This document shows, piece after piece, positions 31,485-52,656 of a stretch of DNA of 52,656 bases (within the stretch, counting starts at the first letter, position 1; each line of letters begins with the position of its first letter). The DNA comes from an uncultured Clostridia bacterium (lineage in GTDB: Bacteria > Bacillota > Clostridia > Christensenellales > Borkfalkiaceae). The position numbers were made by a program, and so were the translations under genes. The notes below the pieces were generated by a model that saw nothing but the letters and a program-made list of their open reading frames with translations, did no database searches and had not been told where the DNA came from. Location: the NCBI GenBank assembly GCA_964393805.1, contig CAYMUQ010000001.1:1-52656 (forward strand), written 5' to 3'.

Positions 31485-31529
31485 TTTTGTTGATTTATAA
31501 AGGCGGTAATCTCCGAAACGGGTACGGGC

Positions 31530-32339: not shown

Positions 32340-33901
32340 TGCTGACTATCCTCTCCCGATTGCTCGGTTATATTTTCTTCTAACGTTTGCTCGGTTATTA
32401 CTTCTTCCCCTGTCGACTGCTCGGTTTCGTCTTCGCTTTGAGTTCCTTCGGGCTCTGCCGAAGTAGCTTCACCCTGTGCGCTCTCAACCACCGCCACCGT
32501 CTTACGCTTTGTAAATTTATCCTTTATCATAGTTACAAACAGTTTGATTGAACGGATATTTGCCAGTAAAAACAAAGCCAAGGCACACGAAGAGACGATA
32601 TAAATATTGAAGCCTAACGCAACTAATATTGTCTGCGCCAAAACTATCGCTCCGTTCAGACAGAACTCCAAAAGTCCGATTTTGAATTTAATGAACTTTC
32701 GCGTATCAATCATTCTTAAAACCGCGATAACGACGTAGGCGGCAACAGTACCGATGACCGCGCCCCATATGTTGTACATTTTTATAAAGAAATAATTGAG
32801 TACTATATTGACGACGGCGGCTATTATCGTAGTTACCATCGAACTCAAATTGCGTTTGAATGCACCGTACAAAGAGCCGTAAAATGCCGATACTGCCGAA
32901 AACGACGCACTTGCGAGAAGCAGAGGAACGTATTGCCACGAACCCGTAAAGTCAGAACCGACGTAAATTCTCATAAAGTCTTTGATTATCAAAGTCAAAA
33001 ACACCGTCGCTCCGAACGCAAGAAATGAATATGCCCTGAATATATTGGAATAAAATTTGGGGTCGTTGGTTGATTCGTTCTCCAATATGGAAGAAACTCC
33101 CCACGCCTGGGAAAAAATCGATATAATAACGTTGATTAGCGCGGGTATCTTGGTAGCTACCGTATAAAGTCCCAGATCCGCATTGCTCACCATATATTGT
33201 ATCATTACTTTATCCGTGGAGTGTATGAGCCACCAGGATAAATCGTTGAATATGATGGGCGCCGAAAAGGCTACCATTCTTTTGACGACTTTAAAATCTA
33301 ACTTGCCTCTTTTTAAAGCTCCGATTATATTGCTTGCAAAAAAGCCTACTATAATTGCAACGCAAACGGATATTATATTTGATAAAAGATAACCTTTTAT
33401 ACCGACTTTAAATCCGACAAGTAAAGCGATATTGGATAAAGCCAAAAACAACGTCTGAATTATACTGATAGCCGCATAGAGCTTGTTTTTGCCTAAAACT
33501 TTAATATAATTCAAAATCATTGAGTTCAGAATGCTGAGCGTGACGTAAGTCGTTAAATACCATTTCCACTCTGAAAGGGGCGCATACAAACTGAATATAG
33601 GCGTTATCGCAAGACAGAGTGCCGAACCTATGCCGAAGATAAAAAATCCCGCTACTAAAACGTTTTCTTTCTGCTCGCTTTTCGAAATACCGAACCTTAA
33701 AACGGCGTTGTAAATAGTAAGCGAAAATACGGGAATAAGCAGTTGGGAGAAAGTAAATACAAGATCCGATATGCCGTAGTCCGCCTGAGTAAGATAGTTC
33801 GTGTACAGCGGCACGAGAAAAAACAAAATAAGTTTGGAGCCGAAACCGCCTATTGCGAATATTAAAGTGTCTTTCAGGAGCCTTGAGTATTTCTTATTCA
33901 T
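32336..33901 (-). CDS. Wzx-type oligosaccharide flippase (MOP superfamily) with an acidic low-complexity C-terminal tail
   Basis: 521 aa with about 12-14 TM helices. The N-terminus is typical of polysaccharide biosynthesis (PST) proteins. The last ~50 aa are E/T/Q/S-rich. Confidence 0.75.
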   Translation of the reverse strand: MNKKYSRLLKDTLIFAIGGFGSKLILFFLVPLYTNYLTQADYGISDLVFTFSQLLIPVFSLTIYNAVLRFGISKSEQKENVLVAGFFIFGIGSALCLAITPIFSLYAPLSEWKWYLTTYVTLSILNSMILNYIKVLGKNKLYAAISIIQTLFLALSNIALLVGFKVGIKGYLLSNIISVCVAIIVGFFASNIIGALKRGKLDFKVVKRMVAFSAPIIFNDLSWWLIHSTDKVMIQYMVSNADLGLYTVATKIPALINVIISIFSQAWGVSSILENESTNDPKFYSNIFRAYSFLAFGATVFLTLIIKDFMRIYVGSDFTGSWQYVPLLLASASFSAVSAFYGSLYGAFKRNLSSMVTTIIAAVVNIVLNYFFIKMYNIWGAVIGTVAAYVVIAVLRMIDTRKFIKFKIGLLEFCLNGAIVLAQTILVALGFNIYIVSSCALALFLLANIRSIKLFVTMIKDKFTKRKTVAVVESAQGEATSAEPEGTQSEDETEQSTGEEVITEQTLEENITEQSGEDSQQ

Positions 33902-35010
33902 TATATTTGACCCCAGAACTCATACGGCCAGAGATTGTTCCACTCGGGTCTCAAATAACAGGTTACTATGAAGTACACTAACAGTAAAACGCATAAAACG
34001 GCAAGCCAGTACTTCTTCGGACTGCGGTTGTTTTCATAGAATGCGTTCGGAAGCTCCGACAGGCACGGCAACGCGAAATATACGCACGCACGCGAGAACA
34101 GGTTAACCGTAAAGCTCAGACACGAGAATATCAAAAGAATAAACGCGCTGGCGTAGGTCACCCTGTCCTTTCTCGTTTTGCCGACCGAATAAACTCTGTG
34201 CAATATCAAGAATATAAAGAAATTTCTTACAAGCTCTACACTTATTCCCAGATATCCGGTTTGCGCGTATTTGCTGTTAAAGTAATTCTGATATTCGGTA
34301 ATCAGGTTGCCGAGAATACTGTTGAGGACGCCCGACACCGAAAGCACCAATACGAACGCCGCAATAAGCAGACTTATTAACAGATTGCGGGGATACAGTT
34401 TGTACAGGAAATATAATAAAGCCACGTACGCAGAAGTATGGAACTGCGCCGCAAGCATAATAAGCAGGAACGCCACGAAACCGTGCTTGTGCTTTATAAG
34501 CTGATATGCGTAAAGCACGATTATCATAGCCAGATCCTGTCTTAAAATATTGACGAAATTCGAGAAACAGAAATAAAATACGAGAACTAAGGAAATCGCC
34601 TTGTTCTTTGAAAACTTGAAAATATAAATTCCGATGCTTACGTAACAGATAGTTGCTACTATTATCAAGAAAACGTGCGGGTCGTCGGTAATATAGCTTA
34701 TAAGAAGATTGAGATACTGATAACCGAGCTCTATTACGTAGCCCGAATCGACGCCGCCGCTGTTTATTGAATTGAAATATTTTACGTAATTTGCAGTATC
34801 GTTACCGATATTTATTCCTCTGAACGCAGTAAAAAACCACATTAAAATGAGGAAAAACAGAATAAAGAGATTATAACCGTGCTCGTAACCGAATTTTGCG
34901 GACAGCAAATTACCGTAACGACCCGCATAAATGCGCCTCGTCACGGTGCGCGAAGTTGCAAATAACGCAACCGCTATCAATACCGCCACTAAAACCCAGT
35001 ATAAACCCAT
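33901..35010 (-). CDS. EpsG-family membrane protein (Wzy-like repeat-unit polymerase)
   Basis: 369 aa, polytopic and AT-rich. The N-terminal region (...GINIGNDTANYVKYF...) resembles the EpsG family. Confidence 0.6.
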   Translation of the reverse strand: MGLYWVLVAVLIAVALFATSRTVTRRIYAGRYGNLLSAKFGYEHGYNLFILFFLILMWFFTAFRGINIGNDTANYVKYFNSINSGGVDSGYVIELGYQYLNLLISYITDDPHVFLIIVATICYVSIGIYIFKFSKNKAISLVLVFYFCFSNFVNILRQDLAMIIVLYAYQLIKHKHGFVAFLLIMLAAQFHTSAYVALLYFLYKLYPRNLLISLLIAAFVLVLSVSGVLNSILGNLITEYQNYFNSKYAQTGYLGISVELVRNFFIFLILHRVYSVGKTRKDRVTYASAFILLIFSCLSFTVNLFSRACVYFALPCLSELPNAFYENNRSPKKYWLAVLCVLLLVYFIVTCYLRPEWNNLWPYEFWGQI

Positions 35011-35012
35011 AT

Positions 35013-36083
35013 TTAACCTTTGACTATCTGTTCATAGCTTGCAACGGCGTCCGCCGCAATCTTACTCCACGAAAATTTATCGGTAACAACTTTCACTGCA
35101 TTTGCGGACTTTATCTTTAATTCTTCCCTTTCCGCAAGTATTTTTTCAAATGCGCGGCACACGTCGTCCGCATTCGTATCGGCTCCCCAACCCGCGTCGC
35201 AGTCTTCGATTACGCTTCTTAAAGTCGTCCCCTCCGTCACAAGACAGGGAACGCCGTACGAAAGCGCCTCCAAAATTCCGAGGGGCATACCTTCGAAACG
35301 CGAGGTCTGTACGAAGACGTCCGCCTCCATCAGCTTTTCAATCTTTTCCTCTTTGAATATCTCGTGGTGAAGGGTTACCACTTCCCGAACGTCATTCTCT
35401 TTGACGAGCTCCTCGAGATGCGCGAACCTTCCGTTATAATCGGGTCCGTAGATATCGAGAGTTACACCGAAATCGAGAAATTTTTGTTTCGCCTTACCTA
35501 CCGCCTCTAAAAGAATATCCAACCCCTTATGGAAGGCGTCAAGTCTGCCTATATACAAAAGCTTAAGTCCGTCGGAAGAAAAATTATTTTTCCGTATCTG
35601 CGGCACTTCTACTCCGTTTGTTCCGACAAATCTCTTTTTACCGAATTTAGTCGTCGTAAGTTCTCTGTCGGAAAGACACTGTATGGCCGCCGCACCGCTT
35701 GTGAAACGGTTAAAAAATAATATATTTGCAACCAACTTTTTAAAGTGCTTTTTCTTCTGGGCTTCGCTCGAAAGTTCGCCGTGCGGTAAAATTATATACG
35801 GCACCTTTATTTTTCTTAACTGTTTTGCTATTTTGAGATACTCAAAGCGGTAACACTCGTGAAAAACGACAACGTCGGGTTTATTGAAGGGTGACGGCAA
35901 ATTTTTAATCTCGAAGTCATCACCGTAGTCGAATTGCCGTACCCCGCCGCAAAGTTTTACGTTGGTCAGATTGACGCAACCGACCGTCGCAAATTCACTC
36001 TGCGCTTTTATATGCTGAGGTACGACGACGTGCACGCCGTTACATAAATTACCCGTCGTTCTTGCAATATGCAAAATCGTCAT
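35013..36083 (-). CDS. Glycosyltransferase family 4 (GT-B fold)
   Basis: 356 aa. C-terminal E-x7-E region RFEGMPLGILEALSYGVPCLVT. Confidence 0.8.
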   Translation of the reverse strand: MTILHIARTTGNLCNGVHVVVPQHIKAQSEFATVGCVNLTNVKLCGGVRQFDYGDDFEIKNLPSPFNKPDVVVFHECYRFEYLKIAKQLRKIKVPYIILPHGELSSEAQKKKHFKKLVANILFFNRFTSGAAAIQCLSDRELTTTKFGKKRFVGTNGVEVPQIRKNNFSSDGLKLLYIGRLDAFHKGLDILLEAVGKAKQKFLDFGVTLDIYGPDYNGRFAHLEELVKENDVREVVTLHHEIFKEEKIEKLMEADVFVQTSRFEGMPLGILEALSYGVPCLVTEGTTLRSVIEDCDAGWGADTNADDVCRAFEKILAEREELKIKSANAVKVVTDKFSWSKIAADAVASYEQIVKG

Positions 36084-36171
36084 AGTTTAATTTCCTTTAA
36101 ATGCCGTAAACTCCCGAACAGATACTTATTTAAGTATCTACGAAACCGCCCCGCGCTTCGGGCTTGTCTAC

Positions 36172-36990
36172 TTACTCTCTTACAAACTTTTTAAACGCCC
36201 ATTCGCGCATACGGTTGGTCATTAAAACGTAAACGATATAGCGTTTGAAGCGCTCTTTGTTGTACTCGTTCAGACTTATTATCTTGTTTTTACGCATAAA
36301 CCTTAAAAGGTCGCGTTCGGATTTATAGTACTTCCTGCCGCCGCGGCGTCTGAACGTCTGCGCGTCTATTCTCGCATATACGAGGACGTCCTGCAAATTG
36401 TAGAATTTACAGCCAGCAAGGTACATTCTTACCCAAAGATAGCTGTCCTCGTTATAGTGCCAGTCGAGGTACCCTCCCGCCTTTTCGACCTCGCTCTTTT
36501 TGAACATTACGGTCATATGATTGAACGGACAGCGGGATTTCAAAAATTTGCACAACTCTTCGTGCGTTTCGGGTACGTTTCTGCGGGAGGTTATATTTTC
36601 GACGCTTCCCTCAAATTCGGCGATATTTCCGCCGCAAATACTTAAATTTTCGTCCTCTTTAAAGCATTTGAGCTGTTTTTCGAAGCGGTCAGTCGCGGCG
36701 ATATCGTCTGTATCCATACGCGCCACAAGCTCGAATTTGCAGTATTTCATACCCTCGCGCAGAGCAAGTCCAAGTCCGTGATTTGTTTCAAGCGGAACAA
36801 CGTCGAGCTCCTTTATTTGGGTTTTAAGCTGCTCTATCTTTTCGGTCAGTTCTTCGGGTACCGGTCCGTCGATAACCAAAACGTACTGCGAAGCCTTTAC
36901 CGTCTGATTTAAAAGACTGTCCAGACACTGAGCAAGCTCGTCCGCTTGGGTATTTTTATAAACCGACATTAAAACGCTGAACTCTTCCAT
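36172..36990 (-). CDS. Glycosyltransferase family 2
   Basis: 272 aa. N-terminal FSVLMSVYKN...LDSLLNQT, and the DxD-type motif MDTDD. Confidence 0.8.
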   Translation of the reverse strand: MEEFSVLMSVYKNTQADELAQCLDSLLNQTVKASQYVLVIDGPVPEELTEKIEQLKTQIKELDVVPLETNHGLGLALREGMKYCKFELVARMDTDDIAATDRFEKQLKCFKEDENLSICGGNIAEFEGSVENITSRRNVPETHEELCKFLKSRCPFNHMTVMFKKSEVEKAGGYLDWHYNEDSYLWVRMYLAGCKFYNLQDVLVYARIDAQTFRRRGGRKYYKSERDLLRFMRKNKIISLNEYNKERFKRYIVYVLMTNRMREWAFKKFVRE

Positions 36991-36991
36991 T

Positions 36992-37675
36992 TTACCTCTT
37001 TAATACGGCGCCTACCGTCTTGAACATTATGCCTATATCCCGCCAGAAGCCGAACTTTTTTAAAGCTTTGAGATTGTATTCCATCTTTGCGGGCAAAACT
37101 TCGTTTATATAGACCTCGTCCGCGTTCTCCGCGCTCTCCATAAGTTCCGCCTCGTCCTTATAGTTTATGCTTGCAAGGCTGGTAACTCCCGCAGGCATCA
37201 GTAAGGTTGCGTACATTTCGGGCGTATAGCACTCAACGTACTTGGGAACTTCGGGGCGGGTACCGACGAAGCTCATCGTGCCGCGGAATATATCCAAAAG
37301 CTGGGGAAGCTCGTCTAACCTGCACTTTCTCAAAAACTTACCGACCTTAGTAACTCTCGCGTCGCCCTTGGACGTGACCTGCGCGCCCAGCTTTTCGGCG
37401 TTTGCGACCATGGTTCTGAATTTGAATATTCTGAAATGCCTGTTATAGCGCGTAACGCGCTCCTGCCTGAAAAAAACCGGTCCGCGGGAATCTATCTTGA
37501 TTATTATCGCAAGTATTAAAAACACGGGCGATAAAATTATAAGCATAAGAAAAGATACGAAAATATCGAACGCGCGTTTGAAAAATCTTCCGCACTTATG
37601 CTTTTTTAAAATATCGTAATATTTTCGCACCTCTTCGGTCTGCATTTCCGAGGGCAGTTTTTCCCATTTTCTCAT
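36992..37675 (-). CDS. Small monotopic phosphoglycosyl transferase (bacterial sugar transferase, PglC/EpsL-like)
   Basis: 227 aa. KRAFD, a re-entrant helix, then GPVFFRQERV...FKFRTM...LDELPQL...MSFVG. Confidence 0.85.
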   Translation of the reverse strand: MRKWEKLPSEMQTEEVRKYYDILKKHKCGRFFKRAFDIFVSFLMLIILSPVFLILAIIIKIDSRGPVFFRQERVTRYNRHFRIFKFRTMVANAEKLGAQVTSKGDARVTKVGKFLRKCRLDELPQLLDIFRGTMSFVGTRPEVPKYVECYTPEMYATLLMPAGVTSLASINYKDEAELMESAENADEVYINEVLPAKMEYNLKALKKFGFWRDIGIMFKTVGAVLKR

Positions 37676-38877
37676 TAAATATATTCCTTGACCGCGTCAA
37701 TAAAATTCTCTATTACGTATTCTACTTCCTCATCCGTCAGTTTAGTAGTAAGCGGCAAAGTTATTTCGTCGACGTACTGCGAATACGCATTGGGATAATT
37801 ATTTATATCGAAGCCGAGGCTTTTATATGCCGTCATCATAGGAAGCGGTTTGTAATGCACGTTGCACGCCACGCCGTTTTCCGCCATTTTAATTATTATC
37901 TGATTGCGCTGTTCTACCGTAATTCCTGGTACGCGGCAGATATAGAGATGACCCGACGAACAAGCGTCTTTGGTGTAATGCTTCAAAGGCTTTATACCCA
38001 GAGGAACAAACGCCTTATCGTACCGCTCCACAATCTCCTTGCGGCGCTTCAACATCTGAGGATACCTTTCGAGTTGTGCAAGTCCTATCGCCGCCATTAT
38101 ATCCGTCATATTGCACTTGTACCAAGGGGCAACAATATCGTATTCCCAGGAACCGAGTTTGGTCTTTGCCAAAGCGTCCTTATTCTGTCCGTGCAAAGAA
38201 AGAAGCTGTACCGTTTTGTAAATTTCCTCGCCGTCGATACCCTCTATATTATTCCAGGTGAGAGCGCCGCCCTCGCCCGTGGTGAGGTTCTTTACGGCGT
38301 GGAAGGAAAATGCGGAAAAGTCGGCAATCGAACCCGCCGTCTTACCCTTATAGGTTGCGCCGAAAGAGTGCGCCGTATCCGCGCAGACCGCTATTCTTCC
38401 CATAGCCTTCTGTATGGCGTTGGCAGGCTTGAACAAACTCTTTTTTGCGTTGACTATCTCGAAAATTCTGTCGTAGTCGCAACAAACGCCGCCGATATCG
38501 ACGGGTATAATCGCCTTGGTCGCGGGAGTTATCGCCTTTTCGAGCGCGTCGTAGTCCATTTCAAGATTGTCTTTCTGCGTATCGATAAGCACGGGTTTTG
38601 CGCCAACGTGGCAAATAACCGACGCCGACGCCGTATAGGTGTAAGCCGAGGTTATCACCTCGTCCCCCTCGCCTATACCGAGAACGCGTAGCGCCATTTC
38701 CGCGCAAGCCGTCTGTGAATTAAGGCAGACCGCCCTGTCCGTGCCGCAATAGCTTGCTATTTGTCTTTCAAACTCCTTGGTCTTGGGTCCGGTCGTTATC
38801 CAGCCCGAACGCAAAACTTCGGTTACCGCCTGTATTTCCTTGTCCGAAATGTCGGGGGGAGAAAAAGGTATTTTCAT
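37675..38877 (-). CDS. DegT/DnrJ/EryC1-family sugar aminotransferase (PglE/EpsN-like)
   Basis: Start re-set to ATG 38877 (MKIPFSPPDISDKEI...). PLP-lysine region SFHAVKNLTTGEGG. The ORF-track start at 38946 lies in the promoter region. Confidence 0.85.
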   Translation of the reverse strand: MKIPFSPPDISDKEIQAVTEVLRSGWITTGPKTKEFERQIASYCGTDRAVCLNSQTACAEMALRVLGIGEGDEVITSAYTYTASASVICHVGAKPVLIDTQKDNLEMDYDALEKAITPATKAIIPVDIGGVCCDYDRIFEIVNAKKSLFKPANAIQKAMGRIAVCADTAHSFGATYKGKTAGSIADFSAFSFHAVKNLTTGEGGALTWNNIEGIDGEEIYKTVQLLSLHGQNKDALAKTKLGSWEYDIVAPWYKCNMTDIMAAIGLAQLERYPQMLKRRKEIVERYDKAFVPLGIKPLKHYTKDACSSGHLYICRVPGITVEQRNQIIIKMAENGVACNVHYKPLPMMTAYKSLGFDINNYPNAYSQYVDEITLPLTTKLTDEEVEYVIENFIDAVKEYI

Positions 38878-38929
38878 ATGCTCTCTGTCTTCTCTTCTAA
38901 AAAAATGTGCAGTTTTACTATTATAATAT

Positions 38930-38959
38930 AGTATATCACTAAGCAAGGAAATAAGTCAA
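38930..38959 (-). promoter_or_regulatory. Internal sigma-A-type promoter of the glycan cluster (TTGACT-18-TGaTATACT)
   Basis: -35 TTGACT at 38959-38954, an 18-nt spacer, and TGATATACT (TATACT at 38935-38930). It sits in a 230-nt gap directly after a terminator. Confidence 0.5.
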
Positions 38960-39050
38960 GAAATTGTATTATTTTGTCAGGGCGGAATATATAGCTTTTG
39001 CATTTTATCGGTTTGTGTCCGAAATAGTCGTTTAAGCCCGTAAAACGCCG

Positions 39051-39080
39051 CAAAATAAAAATACCGCTTCAAAGCGGTAT
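39051..39080 (-). terminator. Rho-independent terminator after the CapD/PglF-like gene
   Basis: Minus strand reads ATACCGC-TTTGAA-GCGGTAT followed by TTTTTATTTT. Confidence 0.7.
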
Positions 39081-39107
39081 TTTCAAATTTATATTCACTT
39101 TAATTGA

Positions 39108-40958
39108 TTATTCCTGCGGTTTATAGGTGGTGACAAGCTCGGAAACCAGGTGTTTCATATCGTCGGTTTCGGCGTACGCCGCCTTATAGAGCTCGTCGAG
39201 TTTTTTCCAGAGGAACGCCTCGTCCAAAGCTATGGGATTGGCGATATTTATAAGTCCGTTCGGCGTGGTCTGAAGCCCCTCTTCGTCCATAAGTCTTTCC
39301 TCGTACAGCTTTTCGCCCGGGCGGAGACCTACGCACTTGATTTCTATATCGACGTTGGGTTCGAGACCCGAAAGCTTGATAAGATTATAAGCAAGGTCGT
39401 AAATTTTTACGGGCTCGCCCATATCGAGGACGAATATCTGTCCTCCCTTTGCGTACGCTCCCGCCTGAAGAACGAGAGAAACCGCTTCGGGGATGGTCAT
39501 AAAGTATCTTATTATATCCTTGTGGGTTACGGTAACGGGTCCGCCCTCGGCTATCTGTTTTTCAAACAGAGGAATGACCGAACCGTTGGAACCTAAAACG
39601 TTTCCGAAACGCACGGCGACGAACTTGGTGTTTTTGCTGTTTCTGCCTATGGTCTGGATAATCATCTCGCAGATACGCTTGGTGGCGCCCATTATGTTCG
39701 TCGGATTTACCGCCTTGTCCGTGGAAATCTGTACGAATACCTTTACGCCGTACTTATCCGCGCACTTTGCGACGTTCAAAGTTCCGAAAACGTTGTTCTT
39801 GACCGCTTCGTTGGGGCTGGTCTCCATTAAGGGAACGTGCTTGTGCGCCGCGGCGTTAAACACTATGTCTGGCTTGTATTCCTTGAACACGTCCTCCATC
39901 TTGCCTTTATCCCTGACGCTTGCGATAAGCGCCGTAAGATTGAGCTCGGGACGGTTTCTCTTCAATTCCTGCTCTATGTCGTAAGTACTGTTTTCGTAGA
40001 TATCAAGAATAATCAGACGCTTGGGACTATGGGTAGCAATCTGACGGCACAGTTCGCTTCCGATAGAGCCGCCTCCGCCCGTAACCATTACGGTCTGACC
40101 TTCGATATATCCCATTATTTCGTCGAGATTTACCTGTATCTGTTCTCTTCCCAAAAGGTCGGTTATCCGCACCTCGCGAAGAGCGCCCATAGTCGCCTCG
40201 CCGCTGACTATCTGATAGATACCGGGCAGGGTTTTTACCTTGCACTTCGTGGTCTTGCAGATTTCGTAAATGCGTTTAAGTTCCACTTTCTTTGCGGAAG
40301 GTATGGCGATAATTATCTCGTCGATTGCGTACTTTTCGGAAAACTTTTTAATCTCATCGGTGTCGCCGACAACCTTTACGTCGTTTATTCTCTTACCGTA
40401 TTTCGAAGGGTCGTCGTCCACGACGCAGACGGGAACGTAGTCGATTTTGTCGGTCGTCTGCATTTCCCTTATAATGGTTGCGCCGGCGTTGCCTCCGCCC
40501 ACTATCATAGCCCTTATCTTACCCTTGTTACGCTTGGTAACCGAATATTTGACCATCAGATAGATACGCTTGGAGAAGCGAATAGTTAAAGTGAGCGCAA
40601 ACAGGGTTATGCAGTAATAGAACTGCTGCCATACCTCCTGCTCCTTGGGAAGAAGGAAGAAAACGTATGCAAAGCCGAAACAGAATACCAAAACGGTAGC
40701 GCCTATAAGCTTTAAAGTATCTACAAGTCCTACCGTATCGAACAGGAAATAATACATTCTGAAAAGCAGGAAGAAAACGTATGTTATACCTATATTTGCA
40801 AGACACCACCAGAGCTGGTTGATATCTTGCGGGATACACTTATTGGCGGAAGCCATCGCTATAAGCAACGCCAAACAAATAGCCGCCAAGTCCAGTAAAG
40901 CGACTATCAAAATACCCGTAAACTTATAGTTATACTTTTTAACCTTTTTCACTTGCAC
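39108..40958 (-). CDS. Membrane-anchored UDP-GlcNAc 4,6-dehydratase (CapD/PglF-like polysaccharide biosynthesis protein)
   Basis: 616 aa. Four N-terminal TM helices. Two Rossmann regions (GGGNAG, GGGGSIGSEL). SDR catalytic region STDKAVNPTNIMGATKR. GTG start. Confidence 0.85.
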   Translation of the reverse strand: MQVKKVKKYNYKFTGILIVALLDLAAICLALLIAMASANKCIPQDINQLWWCLANIGITYVFFLLFRMYYFLFDTVGLVDTLKLIGATVLVFCFGFAYVFFLLPKEQEVWQQFYYCITLFALTLTIRFSKRIYLMVKYSVTKRNKGKIRAMIVGGGNAGATIIREMQTTDKIDYVPVCVVDDDPSKYGKRINDVKVVGDTDEIKKFSEKYAIDEIIIAIPSAKKVELKRIYEICKTTKCKVKTLPGIYQIVSGEATMGALREVRITDLLGREQIQVNLDEIMGYIEGQTVMVTGGGGSIGSELCRQIATHSPKRLIILDIYENSTYDIEQELKRNRPELNLTALIASVRDKGKMEDVFKEYKPDIVFNAAAHKHVPLMETSPNEAVKNNVFGTLNVAKCADKYGVKVFVQISTDKAVNPTNIMGATKRICEMIIQTIGRNSKNTKFVAVRFGNVLGSNGSVIPLFEKQIAEGGPVTVTHKDIIRYFMTIPEAVSLVLQAGAYAKGGQIFVLDMGEPVKIYDLAYNLIKLSGLEPNVDIEIKCVGLRPGEKLYEERLMDEEGLQTTPNGLINIANPIALDEAFLWKKLDELYKAAYAETDDMKHLVSELVTTYKPQE

Positions 40959-45185: not shown

Positions 45186-48100
45186 TCAGCTTAGAGAAAT
45201 TTTGTCGGAAGCGCTCCTAATAAACATTCCGGAGGTCACCCCCTCGTCTATGCAGTCGCTTAAAAACGCCTCGAACTTTGTCGGAAGTTTTTTGATTTTC
45301 AGCTCCGCGACCGCCGCGGACACCAGCTCGTCGCGGTACATTCCCACGTTGCGGATAAGAAGCGCTCTTATGAGCGCAAGCATATCGAACGGCGAGTAGT
45401 CCGACTTTGAAGTACGCAGGGTACTACCCTCCTCCACGCGGAATTTGCGGAAGTCGACAGCTCTGCCGCTCTTATAGTAGTGTGTTTGTCCGAGCATATC
45501 CGCCGACTTGAACGCACACGAGGAAATGAGCGAACCAACCTTGTTTTCCAGTCTCGCGCCGTACTTGGTTATCCCGTACTCGGCGAGTACGCGCTTAATT
45601 AGAAACGCGCGCGAAATAGGCTCCTCCGCCGAGACCACCGACTTCAAAGTCTTAACTATTTCCTCGTCCATATCTCCGCCCGAGAGAGCGTCGGCGCTCA
45701 CGCGGCTTACCTGCGTATCGGCGGCTTTGTAGACTTTTTTGTAGCTTGCCTCCGCGTTGCCGCCAGACGAGGTCAGTCTGTCGAGAAGGTCTTTAATCTT
45801 TTTGATTTCCCTCTTCGGGTTATTGAAGAAATTGACCGAGTAAAGTCTTACCACGTTCCAGTTACCGCGCTTTAAGGCGTTGACCTGCATAACGAATTTA
45901 TCCTTTACCGAAAAGCCCGCGTCGCCGTCGCACAGTACTGCCAAAATGAAGTTCTTTCTGTTTGACGGGTCGAGCACGGCAACATCGATTTTAAAGTCGG
46001 AAGCGCCGACGTCGCACCTGCATTCGTAGCCGTATAAGCTGAGCTCCTTTGCAATATACTTGCCTATCCCCGCTCTGTCCAAAGCCGTTTCGTCGCTTTG
46101 CGAAGCGAGACCCAATCTGCCCTTTTCGGCAAACTCTAAAAAGGCTTTGAGCCCCGCAACACCCTTCGAGGTGGTACGCGACAGGTCGGTCTGCGTATAG
46201 CGCATAGATGAGAAAACCAACATTTCTTCCCTTGCGCGGGAGACCGCAACGTTAAGTCTGCGCCAGCCGCCCACCTGATTTAAAGGTCCGAAATTCAAGG
46301 ATATTTTACCTGCGCGGTCGGGTCCGTAGCACACCGAAAATAGTATGACGTCGCGCTCGTCGCCCTGAACGTTTTCGAGGTTCTTTACAAACAGCGGCTC
46401 TTCCCCGCCGTACGCAAATTCGTCCAGTCCCTTTTCGGCTATTTTCTTATACAGCAGTTTCTCTATATACGCCTGCTGAGGCGTCGAGAAGGTCACCACT
46501 CCAAGAGAAGACTTTCGCAAAATCGGGTCGGATAATCTTCTTATAACCTCGTCGCACAAATCCTCCGCCTCTTTCTTGTTACACTTGGACGCACCTCTTT
46601 CGTACACGCCGCCTTCGACGTATTTCAACCTTACTTTGGAATCTGCAGCGTCGGGCGACGGGAAGGTACAGAGCCTCGATGAATAGTAAGTTATATTTGA
46701 AAACGCTATCAAACTTTCGTGCTTGGAGCGGTAATGCCATATAAGATGCTTTTCGGGTATCCCAAGGGCGAGGCAGTCGTCCAAAACGCTCTCCAAGTCG
46801 TCTGCTTCGGGGTTGTCCTCGTCCGCGCCGACAGACATAAAGAACGAGGTCGGCGGCATCTGTTTGGGGTCGCCCACTATTACCGCGCTCTTGGCTCTCG
46901 CAAGAGACGGAACCGCCTCGCATGTCGGAAGCTGGGAAGCCTCGTCGAAAATTGCCAAGTCGAACAAATCGGACTGCGCGGGCAGGTACTGCGAGACGGT
47001 GAACGGACTCATCAGCATACACGGCGCGGCAACTTTTAAAAGCTCTGGTACGGACGCAAAGAGATTTCTGAGATTAAGTCCTCTTAAATTTGAACCCGTC
47101 TGCCTTTTGAAGCTTAAAAGCTCTAAGGCAAGTGCGCCCTCAGTCCCCTCTGCGGGAAGCCTTGAAATCAAATCTTTTCTAATCTTTAACCGCGTAAGAC
47201 GGATAAATTCGTCGTAGAGCTTTGTTAGATTGCTTGCCGCCTCGTCGATGACCGTAGCCGAAAAATCGGCAAGGCGCAAATCTGCGGGAACGTGATTTTT
47301 GACGAAATTGCCGAACACGTTTTTGCGGAACGCCGACAGAATTTTTTCACCGCTTATCCGTCCGCTTTCCAAAGCGTCGGTAATAAAGGTAAGACCGCTT
47401 TCGTTGAGTTTTTTCGCCGTCGCCTTGTACGTACACCACGCGGGAAGCATATCGATATTTTCTATGAGATAAGAACACTTATTGCCGTAATAGTCGAATA
47501 TATCCTCGTCCGAAACGGCTTTTATGTCGCATTCGGTTATCTCGTTAAAGCTTCCGCTCGCATCGTAAAACGCGGACGCCGCCGATATAAAGCCGTCGAA
47601 AAGAGGCTTAAATCTTTTGTCCTTCGCTTTGACGCAGACGGCGTTGAACGCGTCGGCGTTATAGTCCATAAATACCGAGGTGCAAAGCGCGTGAAAGGCG
47701 TAGAAAGGCTTTAAAAACTCCTCGCGCTTTTTGTCGTTTATTCCGCCCGTAAGACCGAGGAAATTGTCCGAAAGCGCGGTATTATCCGCAATCTTCCGCC
47801 TCTCCTTTTCGATGGCGGCAGCCTCTTTTATAACGCCGAGTTTCTCCTCGTCTTTAATCGGAGTTTTAGCTAAACGGCTTATCTTTTTAATTGCAACGGT
47901 CAGTGCGTGAGACGAAGAAAAATCACCGTTGAAGTTTTCGATTTCTTCGTCCAGCTCGTCGAATAATTTACCGAGCTCGGCAAGTCCCTTAAAGCGCGTC
48001 AGCCAGTTTTTAACCGCCGCGTCGTATCTTAAATTGGCGTTGTAAAAGTTACGGAGTTCCCGCTCGTCGCAGGCGTAAAAAACGTCTAAAGTTCCCTTGG

Positions 48101-50816
48101 CGAGTAACTTTATTATCTCAACCAAAGTGTTGAGTTTTTTGACGGTGAAAGTACCCGTCTTCTGACCGAAGGTTTCCAGAAACAGCGACAGGTAATTTTT
48201 AAGGTGTTTAATCTCCGCGCAGGTCACTTCCGCAGAGCACAACACCGAACGCTTGAACTTGTCGTCGCAATAGGTCGCGTTGACGTTCGAAAAGGGCGAA
48301 CGGCAAACTCCGCCGCACTCCCTCGCCGCCGCCTGTGCGGATAAGAGCATACCTTCGTACTCGGCAAGCTTTTGTGCGGTCAGATTGTCGTAGAAGACGC
48401 TTTCCACGTTAACAAGCTCGGGTGCGGAGAAATTTTTGAAATAGCTTAAAATTCCCTCGTAGACAGAAACGCCCGTACCGCGCTTTTCGTGCATAGCGCT
48501 CATAGGATTTTTTATGGTTTCCCGAAGAGTTTTGATTGCCTCTGCGTCGGCAATAAACTTGCTCTCGTCGAAGGTACTTTTTAATTCCAGTGCATTTTCG
48601 ATCGAGCGCACTATCTCGCCCTTATCCGCAGTCTTGCCGCTGTGCAGTTCGAGACAGAACTCGCCTATACCTATCTCGCCGAGGCGCTTTTTAACGACGT
48701 TCAGCGCCGCCTGCTTTTCGGCGACGAACAGTACTCTTTTGCCTCTGTCGAGAGCGTTTGCAATAATATTCGTAATAGTCTGACTTTTGCCCGTTCCCGG
48801 GGGACCGTGCAGTACGAAGGTTTTACCTGCCGCCGCCTCGGCAACCGCGGCGTACTGCGAGCTATCACAGGCAAGCGGCGTTAGAATTTCGGCGGGGTCG
48901 TCCGTGTCCTCGTCCGCACCTATTAACGTGTTGTCAGCAAGCCTTCCTTTATTTTCGAGAAGTCCGCAGATTAAGGGGTTCTTTTTATACTCGTCCATAT
49001 TGTCGCGGACGTCGCGCCATATAGCGTAGCCAGCGAACGTGAACTGCGCGAGATACGCGTCCTCGAAAACCAGCCAGTCCTTCATATGCGCCGTCTTTGA
49101 ACGCACTACCGCGAGCATTTTCGAAGGCGCAAATTTGTTGTCCTGCAAGCCCCTTAAATCCAACCCGAATTCCTGTTTCAGAAATTCGAGCAAAGTTGTA
49201 TTTACCGAAAACTCTTCGGAAGGTACGATTTCCGTACCCTGCGTTTTGTTGTTTTTTATTCTTACGGGAAGGAGTGCAATCGGCGCGTATTTATACTCCT
49301 TGTCCTCCGCGTGCTTCCACCTCAAAAATCCGAGGGCGAGATAGAGAGTGTTTGCACCCGTCTCCTCCTCGGATGATTTACCCTTTCTTATTAGCGCACG
49401 CACCGCCTCTTTTAAAACACTTTCCGAAAAACAGGCGCGTACTATGCCCGAGTTAAGCTCTAAATTTATGAGTTCGGATAAATTACCTACACTGCGGTTC
49501 AAGCCGAAATTCTGCCCCTCTTCGAGCTTGGCGACGTTGGGTAAAAGGTTAAAGCTTTCCTTTGCCGTGAGCTTTTCCGCAAACCCGTCCGTGTCGCTTA
49601 TTAGAAGATGAACGCAGTCCCTCTCGTATCTGAAATTCAGAAGATTGTTCTTCTGCGATAAATCCAGTAGCCGCCTTTCCCAGTTGCCGTTCCTCGTGGA
49701 CTTGCGCTCTAAGGTCACGTCGTTTGCGTTAATAAGCTTTTCGGGCTTTGCGTCGTACGAGTAGCGGTCGCCCTCGAGTATCTCGTAAGACGAACCGCTT
49801 TCTATCTTGATGGGCATAGAAAACACGCCGCCTATTCGGCACCTTTTGACGTCTATGCACAAATCGTATCTGCCCGCCTGTAAAAGCGAAGAAAAATGCG
49901 CGGCGGAGGTCGCGTAGCTTGCGTTTTTGTGAGCAAACAAATCGTCGACATCGACTATCGCAAGACTGTTTACACCCGAAGATATATAGCGTTCGATATA
50001 AGTTAAGTCGTCCATTACGGGCGCATTGAAGCAACTTTCGACAAGCCATACACCCACCGCTATTTTATTTGCACCCACGACTATGACGGGGTTGAGCTTA
50101 GCCGCTTCCAGACACGAAGCCGTAAAGACCGCCATAGCAAGGGGCGTTGCTTTGCGGTCGAACAATATTTCCGTAAGATTGCCGACGGATACCGTATCGG
50201 TCATTACGCCGCCGTCTTCGCGCTCCAATCCCAGATTTCTGACGGCGGAAAATATCGACGCAAACGCAAAGTTTACGGCGTTTTTGTCGTTGCCTGTATA
50301 TCCGCTCCACTCCCTCGAATAGCCCCAGGTTTTAAGCTGTAAGCCCGCCTCCGCGAGTATTTTTTTGCAGTCCGACAGACGGGGGCGCACGAACGCCGAC
50401 AGCATTTCGGCGTTGCCCGAAAGTCCCGACCAACTATCCATGGGAAGAGCCGTAACGGTTGCCGAAATAGTGCATACGGTTATTTTTCCGCACGACACGC
50501 AGACGGTTACGGTGCAGTCCTTTTTATCCTTTATCTCAGCAAGAAATTTGGGGTTTAAAAGGGGCGGCGTCTTGACTTCGGTGCCGCTCTCGGCAGGCAC
50601 TTTTTTTACGCTTATCTGCGAGGACAAAACGAGTTTATCCGAGCCCGTTACGGTCACGGTAAGCTCCTCTATATCCTCCGCCCCGTTGTTTATCAGACGG
50701 AAAGAAGTAAACAGCGGAATTCTGTTGTAATAGGTTGCATACGAAACGCAGTTTAAAAGCTCGCCTTCAAGGTCGAGCGCTTCGAGTTTTTGTACGGTTT
50801 TTTTGTCAACTGCCAT
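45186..50816 (-). CDS. Giant (~1876 aa) DUF4011 / Upf1-like SF1 helicase (AAA_11+AAA_12) / restriction-endonuclease-like / DUF3320-like protein
   Basis: DUF4011-type signature NWERRLLDLSQKNNLLNF (49632-49676 region). Walker A LHGPPGTGKSQT (48783-48806). Motif II FDLAIFDEASQ (46932-46946). Further helicase motifs VIVGDPKQMPP, WHYRSKHESLI, VQGDERDVILFS and LNVAVSRAREE. Vsr/DUF559-like block ...DFKIDVAV...LAVLCDG...RLYS. The start is set to ATG 50816 (GAGGA 7 nt upstream), because the ORF-track TTG at 50903 lacks an RBS and lies in a terminator. Confidence 0.85.
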   Translation of the reverse strand: MAVDKKTVQKLEALDLEGELLNCVSYATYYNRIPLFTSFRLINNGAEDIEELTVTVTGSDKLVLSSQISVKKVPAESGTEVKTPPLLNPKFLAEIKDKKDCTVTVCVSCGKITVCTISATVTALPMDSWSGLSGNAEMLSAFVRPRLSDCKKILAEAGLQLKTWGYSREWSGYTGNDKNAVNFAFASIFSAVRNLGLEREDGGVMTDTVSVGNLTEILFDRKATPLAMAVFTASCLEAAKLNPVIVVGANKIAVGVWLVESCFNAPVMDDLTYIERYISSGVNSLAIVDVDDLFAHKNASYATSAAHFSSLLQAGRYDLCIDVKRCRIGGVFSMPIKIESGSSYEILEGDRYSYDAKPEKLINANDVTLERKSTRNGNWERRLLDLSQKNNLLNFRYERDCVHLLISDTDGFAEKLTAKESFNLLPNVAKLEEGQNFGLNRSVGNLSELINLELNSGIVRACFSESVLKEAVRALIRKGKSSEEETGANTLYLALGFLRWKHAEDKEYKYAPIALLPVRIKNNKTQGTEIVPSEEFSVNTTLLEFLKQEFGLDLRGLQDNKFAPSKMLAVVRSKTAHMKDWLVFEDAYLAQFTFAGYAIWRDVRDNMDEYKKNPLICGLLENKGRLADNTLIGADEDTDDPAEILTPLACDSSQYAAVAEAAAGKTFVLHGPPGTGKSQTITNIIANALDRGKRVLFVAEKQAALNVVKKRLGEIGIGEFCLELHSGKTADKGEIVRSIENALELKSTFDESKFIADAEAIKTLRETIKNPMSAMHEKRGTGVSVYEGILSYFKNFSAPELVNVESVFYDNLTAQKLAEYEGMLLSAQAAARECGGVCRSPFSNVNATYCDDKFKRSVLCSAEVTCAEIKHLKNYLSLFLETFGQKTGTFTVKKLNTLVEIIKLLAKGTLDVFYACDERELRNFYNANLRYDAAVKNWLTRFKGLAELGKLFDELDEEIENFNGDFSSSHALTVAIKKISRLAKTPIKDEEKLGVIKEAAAIEKERRKIADNTALSDNFLGLTGGINDKKREEFLKPFYAFHALCTSVFMDYNADAFNAVCVKAKDKRFKPLFDGFISAASAFYDASGSFNEITECDIKAVSDEDIFDYYGNKCSYLIENIDMLPAWCTYKATAKKLNESGLTFITDALESGRISGEKILSAFRKNVFGNFVKNHVPADLRLADFSATVIDEAASNLTKLYDEFIRLTRLKIRKDLISRLPAEGTEGALALELLSFKRQTGSNLRGLNLRNLFASVPELLKVAAPCMLMSPFTVSQYLPAQSDLFDLAIFDEASQLPTCEAVPSLARAKSAVIVGDPKQMPPTSFFMSVGADEDNPEADDLESVLDDCLALGIPEKHLIWHYRSKHESLIAFSNITYYSSRLCTFPSPDAADSKVRLKYVEGGVYERGASKCNKKEAEDLCDEVIRRLSDPILRKSSLGVVTFSTPQQAYIEKLLYKKIAEKGLDEFAYGGEEPLFVKNLENVQGDERDVILFSVCYGPDRAGKISLNFGPLNQVGGWRRLNVAVSRAREEMLVFSSMRYTQTDLSRTTSKGVAGLKAFLEFAEKGRLGLASQSDETALDRAGIGKYIAKELSLYGYECRCDVGASDFKIDVAVLDPSNRKNFILAVLCDGDAGFSVKDKFVMQVNALKRGNWNVVRLYSVNFFNNPKREIKKIKDLLDRLTSSGGNAEASYKKVYKAADTQVSRVSADALSGGDMDEEIVKTLKSVVSAEEPISRAFLIKRVLAEYGITKYGARLENKVGSLISSCAFKSADMLGQTHYYKSGRAVDFRKFRVEEGSTLRTSKSDYSPFDMLALIRALLIRNVGMYRDELVSAAVAELKIKKLPTKFEAFLSDCIDEGVTSGMFIRSASDKISLS

Positions 50817-50849
50817 TTTAATATCCTCGGACGGGCTTATCTTTTCCTT

Positions 50850-50858
50850 ATTATAACA
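50850..50858 (-). promoter_or_regulatory. Extended -10 promoter element (TGTTATAAT) upstream of the giant helicase gene
   Basis: Minus strand has TGTTATAAT at 50858-50850, about 34 nt upstream of ATG 50816. There is no good -35. Confidence 0.4.
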
Positions 50859-50906
50859 GTTGGAAATACCCGCTCCGGGTATATTATTGACGAATTTGCT
50901 CAAATT

Positions 50907-50937
50907 AAAAGGGGCGACTGCATTATTACAGCCGCCC
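50907..50937 (-). terminator. Rho-independent terminator after the UvrD-like gene
   Basis: Minus strand reads GGGCGGCTG-TAATAATG-CAGTCGCCC (9 bp, one G-U) followed by CTTTTAATTT. Confidence 0.6.
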
Positions 50938-50954
50938 TTTATCTATTAATCCGT

Positions 50955-52637
50955 TTATCTGATTATTGCCAAATCTTTCAATGCCCTCGTATATGCGATA
51001 TATTTTTCGTTGTCGGTCATATCCTCGTCCGCCACGGCGACCGCGGTAAATTCGAGCCCCTTGCTTTCGTAAACGGTCAGAAGGTTTATTTTATTCTTCG
51101 AGATTACGCCGCTGTCGCGTACTAAGTTATAGCTTTTGCGTGTGAAAGCTTGTAAGTTTGCTTCCGAAGTTATTACCGCACGCAGTCCCGCCTTGTCGCT
51201 AAGATATGAAGAAACGCCTCTTGCATTAATGGTTTTTACCGCCTCTCCTTCAAGACCTATTGTCTGCATTTTGACGTTCAGATTATCCGAAACGAATGAA
51301 ACTATCATATTGGTATTGCGGTAGTTCAAGTCCAGTTCGTAGAGTTGCATATTAAGATGCGACCAGTCCTCCACGCCCCTATACCCCGTAATATTCTGCT
51401 TCAAATCGCCGAACAGGTTGAAGCAGGCTTCCGAGTTTATCTGTTTTAAAAGCCCGTACTCGGTCGGCGAAATATCCTGCGCTTCGTCTACGAAAACGAA
51501 CGAATATGCGGGAGTGAGGTTATAACCCAACCGTTTCAAAAGAAGGCACAGCGCGAACGCGTCGCTTCTAATAAGCTTTTTGGTCTGTAACCCGTATTTA
51601 CTTTTTACGGGCTTGACTATTTCGCGGTAAAAGTACCGCGCAAGCTCTACGCCGTTCCCGCACGACCCTATCTTTACAAGATTTTTCTCGCCCCTTACAA
51701 CCTCGTAAAAGTCCGATAAATACGCGAACTTTTCGGAAATTTCAGAAACACTCTTCTTTGTCCTTTCAATCTCGCGCTTGGTCTCTTCGCGCTTAGCTAT
51801 CCTGTCGGGATAGGTGTATTCCACCTTATCGCCGATATGCTGTTTATACCGCTTTAAGTCCTCTATCTCCTTGTCTATCACTTTGTAAAGAGTACTCAAA
51901 TCGTTTTCCGCATCCCTGCAAATCTTCTGTCCGCCGACGCAGGCAGACTTCAAAGATTTATAGAACGAGAGAAGCTGACGGTAAAAATAGTAATATCCGT
52001 CCATCTTGGCGTCGGTGCGGTTTACGCAGAGAAACTCTTTAATCTCGTTTATACAGTTAAAGAGATTTCTCATCTGTTTGGTGTAGTAGAGACCGCCGTC
52101 GGGCTTTTCCTTTATTTCGCCCAGCACGCAACGCCTGACACGCGTTCCTGCGTTCTTGATTTTTTCGTATTCGCTCTGCTGTAAATTAATCGCTTTGAGT
52201 ATAGAGGCGACGAATTCGTCGCCTCTGTCCGAGGGCAACATACCTCTGACGTCCGAATAAATTTTTGTGAGCTTTTTATCGACGTACTCCGCAAACTGCG
52301 GCGAATAGATATACTTTAAATAATCCTCGTCGACGGGCGAGAGATAGTCCACCCTGCCCTCCAAATCTATCCCCGCGCTCTTTAAAAGACGCGCGTAATA
52401 ATTTTCCAAAGTGACAGTCTTTACCCTCTCAAGTTCGAGGATCTGCGCAAGCTCGTCGATAAAGGCGTTGAAGCTGTCCGACGGCGTTATAACGAGTACC
52501 TGCGAGGGCTTGATATTCTCGTTGTTATACATAAGGTAGGACAGTCTGTGCAGAAGTATCATAGTCTTGCCGCTTCCCGCAACGCCCTGTACTATAAATT
52601 CCTTGTCCTGTTGTTGTGTTTTCTGCCATATAAGCAA
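50955..52637 (-). CDS. UvrD/Rep-like superfamily 1 helicase/ATPase (start uncertain, at window edge)
   Basis: 560 aa. Walker A GVAGSGKT at residues 18-25 (52563-52586). Motif Ia VLVITPSD. Motif II FVFVDEAQDISPTEY. Motif III FGDLKQNI. Motif IV LNYRNT. Motif V LLTVYESKGLEF. Motif VI AYTRALKDLAII. A ~300-aa helical insertion lies between motifs Ia and II. TTG start 3 nt after an in-frame TGA. Confidence 0.8.
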   Translation of the reverse strand: MLIWQKTQQQDKEFIVQGVAGSGKTMILLHRLSYLMYNNENIKPSQVLVITPSDSFNAFIDELAQILELERVKTVTLENYYARLLKSAGIDLEGRVDYLSPVDEDYLKYIYSPQFAEYVDKKLTKIYSDVRGMLPSDRGDEFVASILKAINLQQSEYEKIKNAGTRVRRCVLGEIKEKPDGGLYYTKQMRNLFNCINEIKEFLCVNRTDAKMDGYYYFYRQLLSFYKSLKSACVGGQKICRDAENDLSTLYKVIDKEIEDLKRYKQHIGDKVEYTYPDRIAKREETKREIERTKKSVSEISEKFAYLSDFYEVVRGEKNLVKIGSCGNGVELARYFYREIVKPVKSKYGLQTKKLIRSDAFALCLLLKRLGYNLTPAYSFVFVDEAQDISPTEYGLLKQINSEACFNLFGDLKQNITGYRGVEDWSHLNMQLYELDLNYRNTNMIVSFVSDNLNVKMQTIGLEGEAVKTINARGVSSYLSDKAGLRAVITSEANLQAFTRKSYNLVRDSGVISKNKINLLTVYESKGLEFTAVAVADEDMTDNEKYIAYTRALKDLAIIR

Positions 52638-52640
52638 AAT

Positions 52641-52656
52641 TCACCAACTGGTCGTT
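52641..52656 (-). other. Possible 3' end (…TTSW-TGA) of a further upstream minus-strand ORF cut by the window edge
   Basis: The frame is open from the window edge to the TGA at 52643-52641, and it is the same frame as the UvrD-like gene. Only 5 codons are visible, so this is tentative. Confidence 0.25.

Follow-up and report, generated by a model that had tools for sequence, protein, structure and literature searches.

The window analysed here is a stretch of 52,656 nt from an uncultured Clostridia bacterium (GenBank assembly GCA_964393805.1, contig CAYMUQ010000001.1, positions 1 to 52,656), which appears to be a whole contig. Two neighbouring open reading frames (ORFs) of the same strand lie at its right edge (50955..52637 and 45186..50903, both minus strand), as an earlier note on this DNA had reported, and the second of them encodes a giant protein of 1876 amino acids (aa). 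By its sequence, this giant is a divergent Clostridia-branch member of the Hhe/ProA family, fixed on the chromosome. On balance we lean towards the explanation that it is a stand-alone helicase-nuclease of the Hhe/ProA type, encoded by a stable chromosomal gene that lies beside an independently transcribed HelD-like gene, because it matches the Hhe, ProA and PDC-S37 models, no recurrent partner was found outside its lineage, a terminator and a -10 box lie between the two genes, and each of the genes was also found alone. The giant and its parts are as follows.

45186..50816 (stop included), minus strand: coding sequence of the giant, 1876 aa, a Hhe/ProA-family protein with DUF4011, a superfamily 1B (SF1B) helicase and an MTES_1575 nuclease
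50448..50777, minus strand: N-terminal beta-sandwich domain, aa 14-123 (AlphaFold2 model)
49776..50429, minus strand: likely transglutaminase/PNGase/Rad4-like alpha/beta domain, aa 130-347 (AlphaFold2 and Foldseek)
49179..49673, minus strand: DUF4011 region including RLLDLSQKNNLLNF, aa 382-546 (Pfam PF13195, 1.2e-29, full profile covered)
48612..48899, minus strand: N-terminal part of helicase domain 1A, aa 640-735 (Pfam AAA_11/AAA_30/AAA_19, with AAA_11 at aa 651-714)
48783..48806, minus strand: Walker A motif GPPGTGKS, in helicase domain 1A
47037..48611, minus strand: insertion of ~525 aa between Walker A and motif II, aa 736-1260, with no recognised Pfam domain
46182..47036, minus strand: remaining helicase core, aa 1261-1545 (Pfam AAA_12 at aa 1360-1537, Viral_helicase1)
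46932..46946, 46851..46874 and 46230..46250, minus strand: core helicase motifs DEASQ, GDPKQMPP and VAVSRAR
45789..46055, minus strand: Vsr/DUF559-like restriction endonuclease (REase) domain MTES_1575, aa 1588-1676 (Pfam PF18741, 2e-13)
45189..45719, minus strand: C-terminal region, aa 1700-1876, with a DUF3320-like stretch at 45546..45665 (aa 1718-1757)

The giant starts at the ATG at 50816, with a GAGGA ribosome-binding site upstream, which gives 1876 aa, and the ORF itself reaches 50903; its full-length orthologues (n = 112) have 1871-1878 aa and 59-80% identity, and an exact look-up in public assemblies returned no record of the giant itself. The motifs that the earlier note had quoted for the two proteins were all present, those of the giant being RLLDLSQKNNLLNF (aa 382-395), GPPGTGKS (aa 671-678), DEASQ (aa 1291-1295), GDPKQMPP (aa 1315-1322) and VAVSRAR (aa 1523-1529), and the helicase motif residues were invariant over 24 diverse family members (alignment A2). 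Pfam recovered DUF4011, the helicase core and the Vsr-like REase, and the earlier reading as a Upf1-like helicase of defence type in fusion with a Vsr-like nuclease stood; the DUF3320 assignment stood only as a sub-threshold match (PF11784, 22.2 bits against a cut-off of 25 bits), and PF11784 is present in the precomputed annotation of several orthologues. The ~525-aa insertion that splits the helicase is kept among the orthologues, and only the closer representatives align to it without a break. The nearest relatives of the helicase core in PDB are IGHMBP2 (best), Sen1 and Nam7/Upf1, and no solved structure of the giant's own family was among the PDB relatives searched. In the nuclease, D1611, D1630 and D1639 are conserved family-wide in the family alignment.

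When the giant was compared with curated profile hidden Markov models, its score against NCBIfam NF058533 ('anti-phage protein ProA', an equivalog model of 1903 positions) was 1411.2 bits over aa 25-1686, and it has the full ProA architecture, namely an N-terminal domain of ~380 aa, DUF4011, a split SF1 helicase, MTES_1575 and a C-terminal region. The giant and its nearer relatives scored 1411-1546 bits on the ProA model, around or under its cut-off (subclade members P0124 and P0134: 1461 and 1495), and the representatives that pass the cut-off, hereafter ProA proper (2043-2145 bits; P0146 2145, P0165 2043), are 29-31% identical to the giant and have the same architecture. The PADLOC PDC-S37 profile matched at 912 bits (expectation value, E, 1.9e-274), with profile positions 12-1536 of 1550 aligned to aa 378-1863, and the giant agrees with PDC-S37 both in this near full-length match and in being a single gene without a conserved partner, since no recurrent neighbour occurs outside the close lineage. 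PADLOC Hhe matched with E 1.3e-139 (best stretch aa 1120-1695), and Pfam places in one polypeptide the DUF4011, helicase and Vsr-like endonuclease that mark Hhe. Hhe has been described as a defence encoded by one gene, with helicase and Vsr-nuclease domains; it acts against lambda, T3, T7 and PhiV-1, and the nuclease mutation E1731A abolishes it. In a second paper it is likewise one helicase and nuclease gene, with T7 class II genes g1.4-g2 and g2.8 as trigger candidates and Bas63 g40 toxic only in hhe cells (bioRxiv 10.1101/2024.10.10.617714). Given these strong ProA, Hhe and PDC-S37 matches and the experimental support for Hhe, the statement that the giant's family has no assigned function had to be withdrawn. 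A query of aa 1-1200 against 1.84 billion representatives returned 4406 proteins at E <= 1e-30, many of them ~1900-2000 aa long and aligning from residue ~15, and the closest giant relatives (59-80% identity) come from metagenome-assembled genomes of gut Clostridia labelled Candidatus Coproplasma, Christensenella/Christensenellaceae or Clostridia.

The N-terminal module was characterized by modelling; Pfam had no match in the N-terminal 350-380 aa of the giant and of two ProA-proper proteins. The AlphaFold2 model of aa 1-385 (predicted local distance difference test, pLDDT, 86; predicted template modelling score, pTM, 0.81) has an all-beta part at aa 14-123, followed by an alpha/beta domain at aa 130-347. 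Foldseek gave only weak matches for the two-domain model, to glycosidase and transglutaminase beta-sandwiches (template modelling score, TM, <=0.23). When the alpha/beta domain was modelled alone (aa 126-350, pLDDT 90.8), the top 12 matches were all transglutaminase-fold proteins (BDI_1141 3kd4, PNGase, XPC/Rad4, 3isr), all weak (E 0.015-1, TM 0.25-0.35), and aa 130-347 are likely to have a transglutaminase/Rad4-like fold. In the columns of alignment A2 for window aa 215-275, ProA proper carries GQRVR...GTCLDL...HAF...DD, a Cys/His/Asp arrangement, and the window subclade has ATPLAMA for GTCLDL and KIA for HAF, with only DD retained; this signature is our own observation on the sampled members above the cut-off and not a published criterion. 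The domain is thus probably degenerate in the window subclade, whereas in ProA proper it is probably catalytic or at least still has its Cys and His. Such a difference between an equipped and a degenerate N-terminal domain would offer a concrete handle on how ProA-type proteins sense their trigger.

From domain logic and by analogy with Hhe, we infer that the giant would act alone. Its beta-sandwich, inactive transglutaminase/Rad4-like domain and DUF4011 would serve to recognise nucleic acid in an abnormal or foreign state, or to gate the enzyme on it; the helicase, powered by ATP, would move along the substrate, and the C-terminal nuclease would cut it. Phage or plasmid DNA would be restricted in this way, as is reported for Hhe of E. 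coli.

The neighbouring gene is a UvrD-family ATPase gene, as first read, and is represented in the window by these features.

50955..52637, minus strand: 3' ~70% (560 codons) of a HelD-like UvrD-family ATPase gene, a TTG-start ORF cut by the contig end
52563..52577 and 51474..51488, minus strand: motifs GSGKT and DEAQD of the HelD-like fragment
52605..52656, minus strand: terminal ~52 nt with no alignment to the L001 gene, with an in-frame TGA at 52643..52641 and another frame open to the contig end

Also present in the fragment are YRNT, YESKGLEF and YTRALKDL. Orthologous loci have an ORF of 788-849 aa at this position (annotated as 790-794 aa). The protein of locus L001 has 791 aa, and its last 560 residues share 82% identity with the window ORF; as far as sequence comparison goes, the neighbour is thus a contig-truncated part of a ~790-aa HelD-like gene. 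The longest contig listed in the database record of the giant has 52,656 nt, exactly as long as the window. Because the contig end cuts this gene, the 560-aa protein with a P-loop 18 residues from its start, described at first reading, is an artefact of the edge. The terminal ~52 nt are either a contig-end assembly artefact or a real gene disruption; when an insertion sequence (IS) element or repeat was looked for, the last 70 nt of the window had no further copy in the window or the fetched loci. The full-length orthologue scored 110-111 bits against the NCBIfam HelR/HelD models, with alignments from aa 75-98 (the window fragment 76.6 bits), which is below the HelD/HelR equivalog cut-offs (HelD_BACSU 419, HelR 750; range 419-1100). 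In PDB it matched B. subtilis HelD 6WVK_H (1e-23; aa 102-311 aligned to chain residues 95-297 and aa 584-768 to 515-725) and M. smegmatis HelD 6YXU_H (7e-17). HelD and HelR are RNA polymerase recycling motors, whose characterised members bind RNA polymerase.

Between the two genes lie a terminator and a promoter signal, as had been noticed before (hairpin 50937..50912, TGnTATAAT box).

50912..50937, minus strand: terminator-like hairpin (11 bp, 7 of them GC) followed by CTTTTAATTT, directly after the HelD-like stop codon
50850..50858, minus strand: extended -10 box (TGTTATAAT, TGnTATAAT), likely the giant's own promoter, by consensus match only

The hairpin was found by a consensus scan and has a fold z-score of -4.0; an equivalent hairpin with T-run occurs in L001, L003, L005, L006, L007, L013 and L030, and TATAAT-type boxes occur at the corresponding position in orthologous intergenic regions, so that most loci of the lineage have both signals. 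With this predicted terminator and promoter, the HelD-like gene and the giant are most likely transcribed separately. A GTCAATAAT motif also recurs in the intergenic regions between the HelD-like gene and the giant (window ~50880..50900, minus strand; L001, L006, L008, L012, L013 and L030), upstream of the TATAAT box; ATACCC follows it in several loci, and in the window ATACCCGGAGCGGGTAT forms a palindrome. It is a candidate operator or promoter element for the giant gene.

The earlier proposal that the two genes could form a module was examined in neighbourhood surveys from both sides. In the giant-centred survey (80 species-level genome loci and 5 assemblies), all five assembly loci and 12 of the 25 informative genome loci of the close lineage, whose giants are 48-67% identical, had a HelD-like gene within 6 kb upstream; in L018 and L022 one to three genes stand between the two. 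It was absent beside the giant in L010, L015, L019-21, L026-28, L048, L055, L056, L069 and L070; the giants of L010, L015, L019-21, L026-28, L055 and others among such loci are 48-60% identical. Farther away it was found in none of 47 distant ProA-like loci, none of three further clade-B loci (55-73% identity), which are solitary and have McrBC/WYL, AbiEii or integrase genes as neighbours, and beside neither of two inspected plasmid copies; in the 85 loci, no gene cluster other than the giant itself recurred outside the close lineage. The 148 neighbours of distant ProA-like genes, described without background control, were a heterogeneous set of mostly housekeeping families, with a few matches to Cas2 (x2), reverse transcriptase (x2), mad3 (x3) and AAA_21 (x2). 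In the HelD-centred survey (80 metagenome loci), the giant followed in 16 of the 18 informative loci with a HelD-like identity of at least 52% (gap 61-1158 nt in 15, 3.8 kb in one), and HelD-like genes without a giant occurred in L100 and L103-L114 (42-54% identity). The pair is thus syntenic in about half of the close lineage and in no distant ProA-like locus. The adjacency is most likely a feature of this Clostridia lineage and not a requirement of the family, a conserved two-gene system of the family was not supported, and the pair as a candidate uncharacterised module was not established.

Several observations weigh against the stand-alone explanation. The profile search proposed in the earlier note did match the giant to curated anti-phage families, yet below their cut-offs: its ProA score of 1411.2 lies just under the curated 1500 bits, and its Hhe score (NCBIfam NF042953) of 659.6 bits, with the best stretch at aa 967-1706, lies far under 2000 bits. 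A literature search on ProA did not find the defining paper, and ProA is called anti-phage here after its NCBIfam label; ProA is not mentioned in a candidate RNA-phage preprint, and a literature search found no paper that names PDC-S37. Anti-phage activity would be ascribed to the giant by analogy, the tested members lying outside this Clostridia subclade. In the family alignment Leu1628 replaces the canonical Glu of the ExDG motif, at a position that is variable across the ProA family, and the N-terminal Cys and His are lost in the giant; for these two reasons its catalytic competence is only presumed. Further, in species whose giants are 48-80% identical the surrounding backbone is guaA...ComEC-holA or glmM-glmS, a synteny atypical for a defence gene. 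Finally, the HelD-like/giant pair stays intact through at least four flank arrangements (guaA...pair...glmM-glmS; SpoIIE...pair...dapB-dapA-asd; guaA-SpoU-pair-ComEC; guaA-pair-dapB), and in six distant loci a large helicase-MTES_1575 gene of one of two other clades lies shortly upstream of the HelD-like gene, in four of these right beside it.

The last two observations bear on the alternative that the HelD-like ATPase and the helicase-nuclease are a facultative two-component module of transcription-coupled surveillance or defence, in which the HelD-like protein would engage RNA polymerase or a stalled complex and then recruit, license or clear the way. The six loci are L119, L122, L123, L136, L138 and L159, and their gene order is the reverse of that in the window, with the helicase-MTES_1575 gene upstream and the HelD-like gene downstream. 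The proteins of L119, L122, L123 and L136 (1682 aa in L122) combine DUF4011, helicase and MTES_1575 but lack the giant's N-terminal module, and their identity to the giant is ~30%; the HelD-like gene (921-1150 aa) overlaps in L123, follows after 34 nt in L122 and is separated by one to three genes in L119 and L136. In L138 and L159 the helicase-MTES_1575 proteins, ~25% identical to the giant, have 1632 and 1449 aa, and the HelD-like gene (860 aa in L159, contig-cut in L138) begins 93 and 8 nt further on, respectively. The extents of four of these loci are given below.

L122, 429..11156: DUF4011-helicase-MTES_1575 gene with HelD-like gene
L136, 12..10580: DUF4011-helicase-MTES_1575 gene with HelD-like gene
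L138, 2806..8570: helicase-MTES_1575 gene with HelD-like gene
L159, 197..7136: helicase-MTES_1575 gene with HelD-like gene

These four, all on distant metagenomic contigs and with complete HelD-like copies of 860-1128 aa, look like compact defence-island operons, and the neighbours include a DUF2201 metallopeptidase/VWA gene and an HNH endonuclease gene in L122 and a split GmrSD in L136.

We regard such a two-component module as possible but doubtful. The adjacency seen from both sampling directions (12/25 genome and 16/18 metagenome loci), the pair kept as a unit among changing upstream and downstream genes, and the independent reversed-order juxtapositions argue for it, and between L122 and L136 the identity is 52% for the DUF4011 proteins but only ~32% for their HelD-like partners, which fits repeated pairing. 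The T7 g1.4-g2 block includes gp2, an inhibitor of host RNA polymerase; as Hhe trigger candidates include this block, gp2 would make a speculative bridge to the HelD-like neighbour. These points are countered by the lack of a HelD-like gene in the 47 distant ProA-like, three further clade-B and two plasmid loci, by the occurrence of each gene alone in sister lineages, by the terminator between the genes in the lineage and by the self-sufficiency of Hhe as a single gene. The HNH, GmrSD and DUF2201 neighbours of clades B and C mean that ordinary defence-island clustering could explain the adjacency; in Halomonas, a Gabija GajB lies 1 kb from Hhe. A wider form of the idea, which we hold to be rather unlikely, is that Upf1-like helicase-MTES_1575 nucleases of the ProA-like, the PDC-S37-like and a third clade repeatedly team up with HelD-like UvrD-family ATPases, which would be exchangeable among them, in a so far unrecognised transcription-coupled surveillance module that would be fixed as a chromosomal pair in this Clostridia lineage. 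If the module were true, a helicase-nuclease and a factor that engages RNA polymerase would together sense or destroy nucleic acids that are foreign or generate conflicts, and if the occurrence of HelD-like genes beside three helicase-MTES_1575 clades went beyond island clustering, defence proteins of this class would be tied to the handling of RNA polymerase.

A second alternative takes the giant for a housekeeping Sen1/Upf1-like helicase-nuclease of this lineage, which would resolve R-loops or transcription-replication conflicts and would not be an immune gene. Its chromosomal context is in keeping with this. The same-strand genes downstream of the giant are a hexapeptide acyltransferase gene, glmM and glmS, beyond which comes a polysaccharide-biosynthesis cluster, and the housekeeping flanks (glmM, glmS) and native composition reported earlier were confirmed, base composition being uniform through the giant region and no mobile-element genes being found among the annotated neighbours in the window. 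The synteny in the close Clostridia lineage (e.g., guaB-guaA...giant-ComEC-holA), conserved with housekeeping genes across species at 48-80% identity, looks vertically inherited, and a place beside an RNA-polymerase-removing HelD-like factor would fit such a role. The closest solved helicase cores (IGHMBP2, Sen1, Upf1) and the loss of the N-terminal catalytic residues, as in the DNA-binding transglutaminase-like domain of Rad4/XPC, point the same way, and in P. aeruginosa a DUF4011 gene is core, being present in every isolate, and flanks the defence hotspot cDHS1.

Against a housekeeping role, both nearest curated families are anti-phage, and relatives are common on conjugative plasmids and beside Abi or McrBC genes. 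In PLSDB, 491 plasmid records, a large share of them for conjugative plasmids, carry giant relatives at ~29-33% identity (238 records from Klebsiella and 108 from Ralstonia; e.g., NZ_CP063864.1 27082..32973); the two plasmid copies inspected were both IS-flanked and solitary, the Klebsiella one having IS1, IS3 and Tn3 elements and an AbiJ-NTD4 gene as flanks. The family also has a scattered distribution among phyla, and members from Clostridia, Prevotellaceae, Synergistota and Verrucomicrobiae share ~52% identity, which indicates its horizontal transfer. We thus judge a housekeeping role unlikely. In addition, a phage record (MT836269.1 5679..11315, an 11.4-kb unannotated 'Bacteriophage sp.' from human faeces) encodes a relative that covers 84% of the giant at 33.7% identity; a phage-borne copy and a misbinned piece of bacterial DNA are both conceivable.

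That the pair is a known multi-gene system of the Gabija or Mokosh type, likenesses that the earlier note had raised, is highly improbable: the partner has weak local PADLOC GajB matches around motif II (best 5.5e-16) and the giant weak MkoA/MkoC matches (E 1e-26 to 1e-29), but the former cover only ~70-90 residues around aa 373-460 of the partner, with no full-length match to a GajB profile, and belong to the 3' 70% of a HelD-like protein, no GajA (ATPase-TOPRIM) is adjacent in the window or the orthologous loci, where the neighbours are the giant, guaA and SpoU or SpoIIE-type genes, and the latter (90-100 bits) cover only generic helicase parts, with no PLD or other Mokosh partner adjacent.

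The stand-alone Hhe/ProA-type explanation, if it holds, is mostly a correction, in that an apparent orphan giant becomes a divergent branch of a family with curated anti-phage models. A defence-type helicase-nuclease kept in a stable housekeeping site across many gut Clostridia raises the question of 'domesticated' or core immunity. Away from the two genes, one further feature was recorded beyond the glm genes.

30495..40958: polysaccharide-biosynthesis cluster of low GC (0.41), with LicD, EpsG, flippase, GT1/GT2/GT4 glycosyltransferases, sugar transferase, DegT aminotransferase and PseB-like dehydratase

This cluster looks like a variable surface-glycan locus. At the other end, the window (positions 1..~60) seems to begin inside the 3' end of a tRNA, with GGTTCAAATCCC as its T-arm and a hairpin and T-run behind it; the left contig break therefore probably falls within a tRNA.

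Compared with the known systems, the giant resembles ProA in overall architecture and length, and its N-terminal domain, DUF4011, helicase motifs and MTES_1575 all align with the members above the cut-off; it differs in that the last ~190 model positions are unaligned, identity to the ProA-proper representatives is ~30%, the N-terminal Cys/His signature is missing and the gene sits in a conserved housekeeping context. With E. coli Hhe it shares DUF4011, a Upf1-like helicase and a Vsr-like nuclease in one protein, and the Hhe models match over its C-terminal half, but only the C-terminal ~740 aa align well; with respect to the Hhe nuclease residue E1731, the giant has Leu1628 at the canonical ExDG Glu and keeps D1611, D1630 and D1639, as read from an alignment without the Hhe sequence. 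PDC-S37 is matched over nearly the full profile, and clade-B proteins of ~1670 aa have exactly its N-terminally shorter architecture, whereas the giant has an extra N-terminal module of ~380 aa, and PDC-S37 is only a candidate system.

As to the neighbour, its full-length orthologue is similar to HelD/HelR in the N-terminal domain (PYFARMD...YYIG...DWRAP), the Q motif, Walker A and domain 2A, with a long insertion in 1A, and in size (~790 aa versus 774 aa for B. subtilis HelD), and the nearest annotated plasmid relatives of the distant HelD-like homologue in L122 are named helD; in contrast, the sub-cut-off scores indicate that it is not an orthologue of characterised HelD or HelR, and the window holds just the C-terminal 560 codons. 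Gabija GajB is likewise a UvrD-family ATPase able to adjoin other defence genes, but the N-terminal domain of the partner is HelD-like and its best relatives are HelD and HelR. Lastly, the cDHS1-flanking DUF4011 gene of P. aeruginosa, which belongs to another phylum and is likened here by description and not by sequence, is large and holds a fixed chromosomal position, which parallels the stable synteny of the giant in gut Clostridia.

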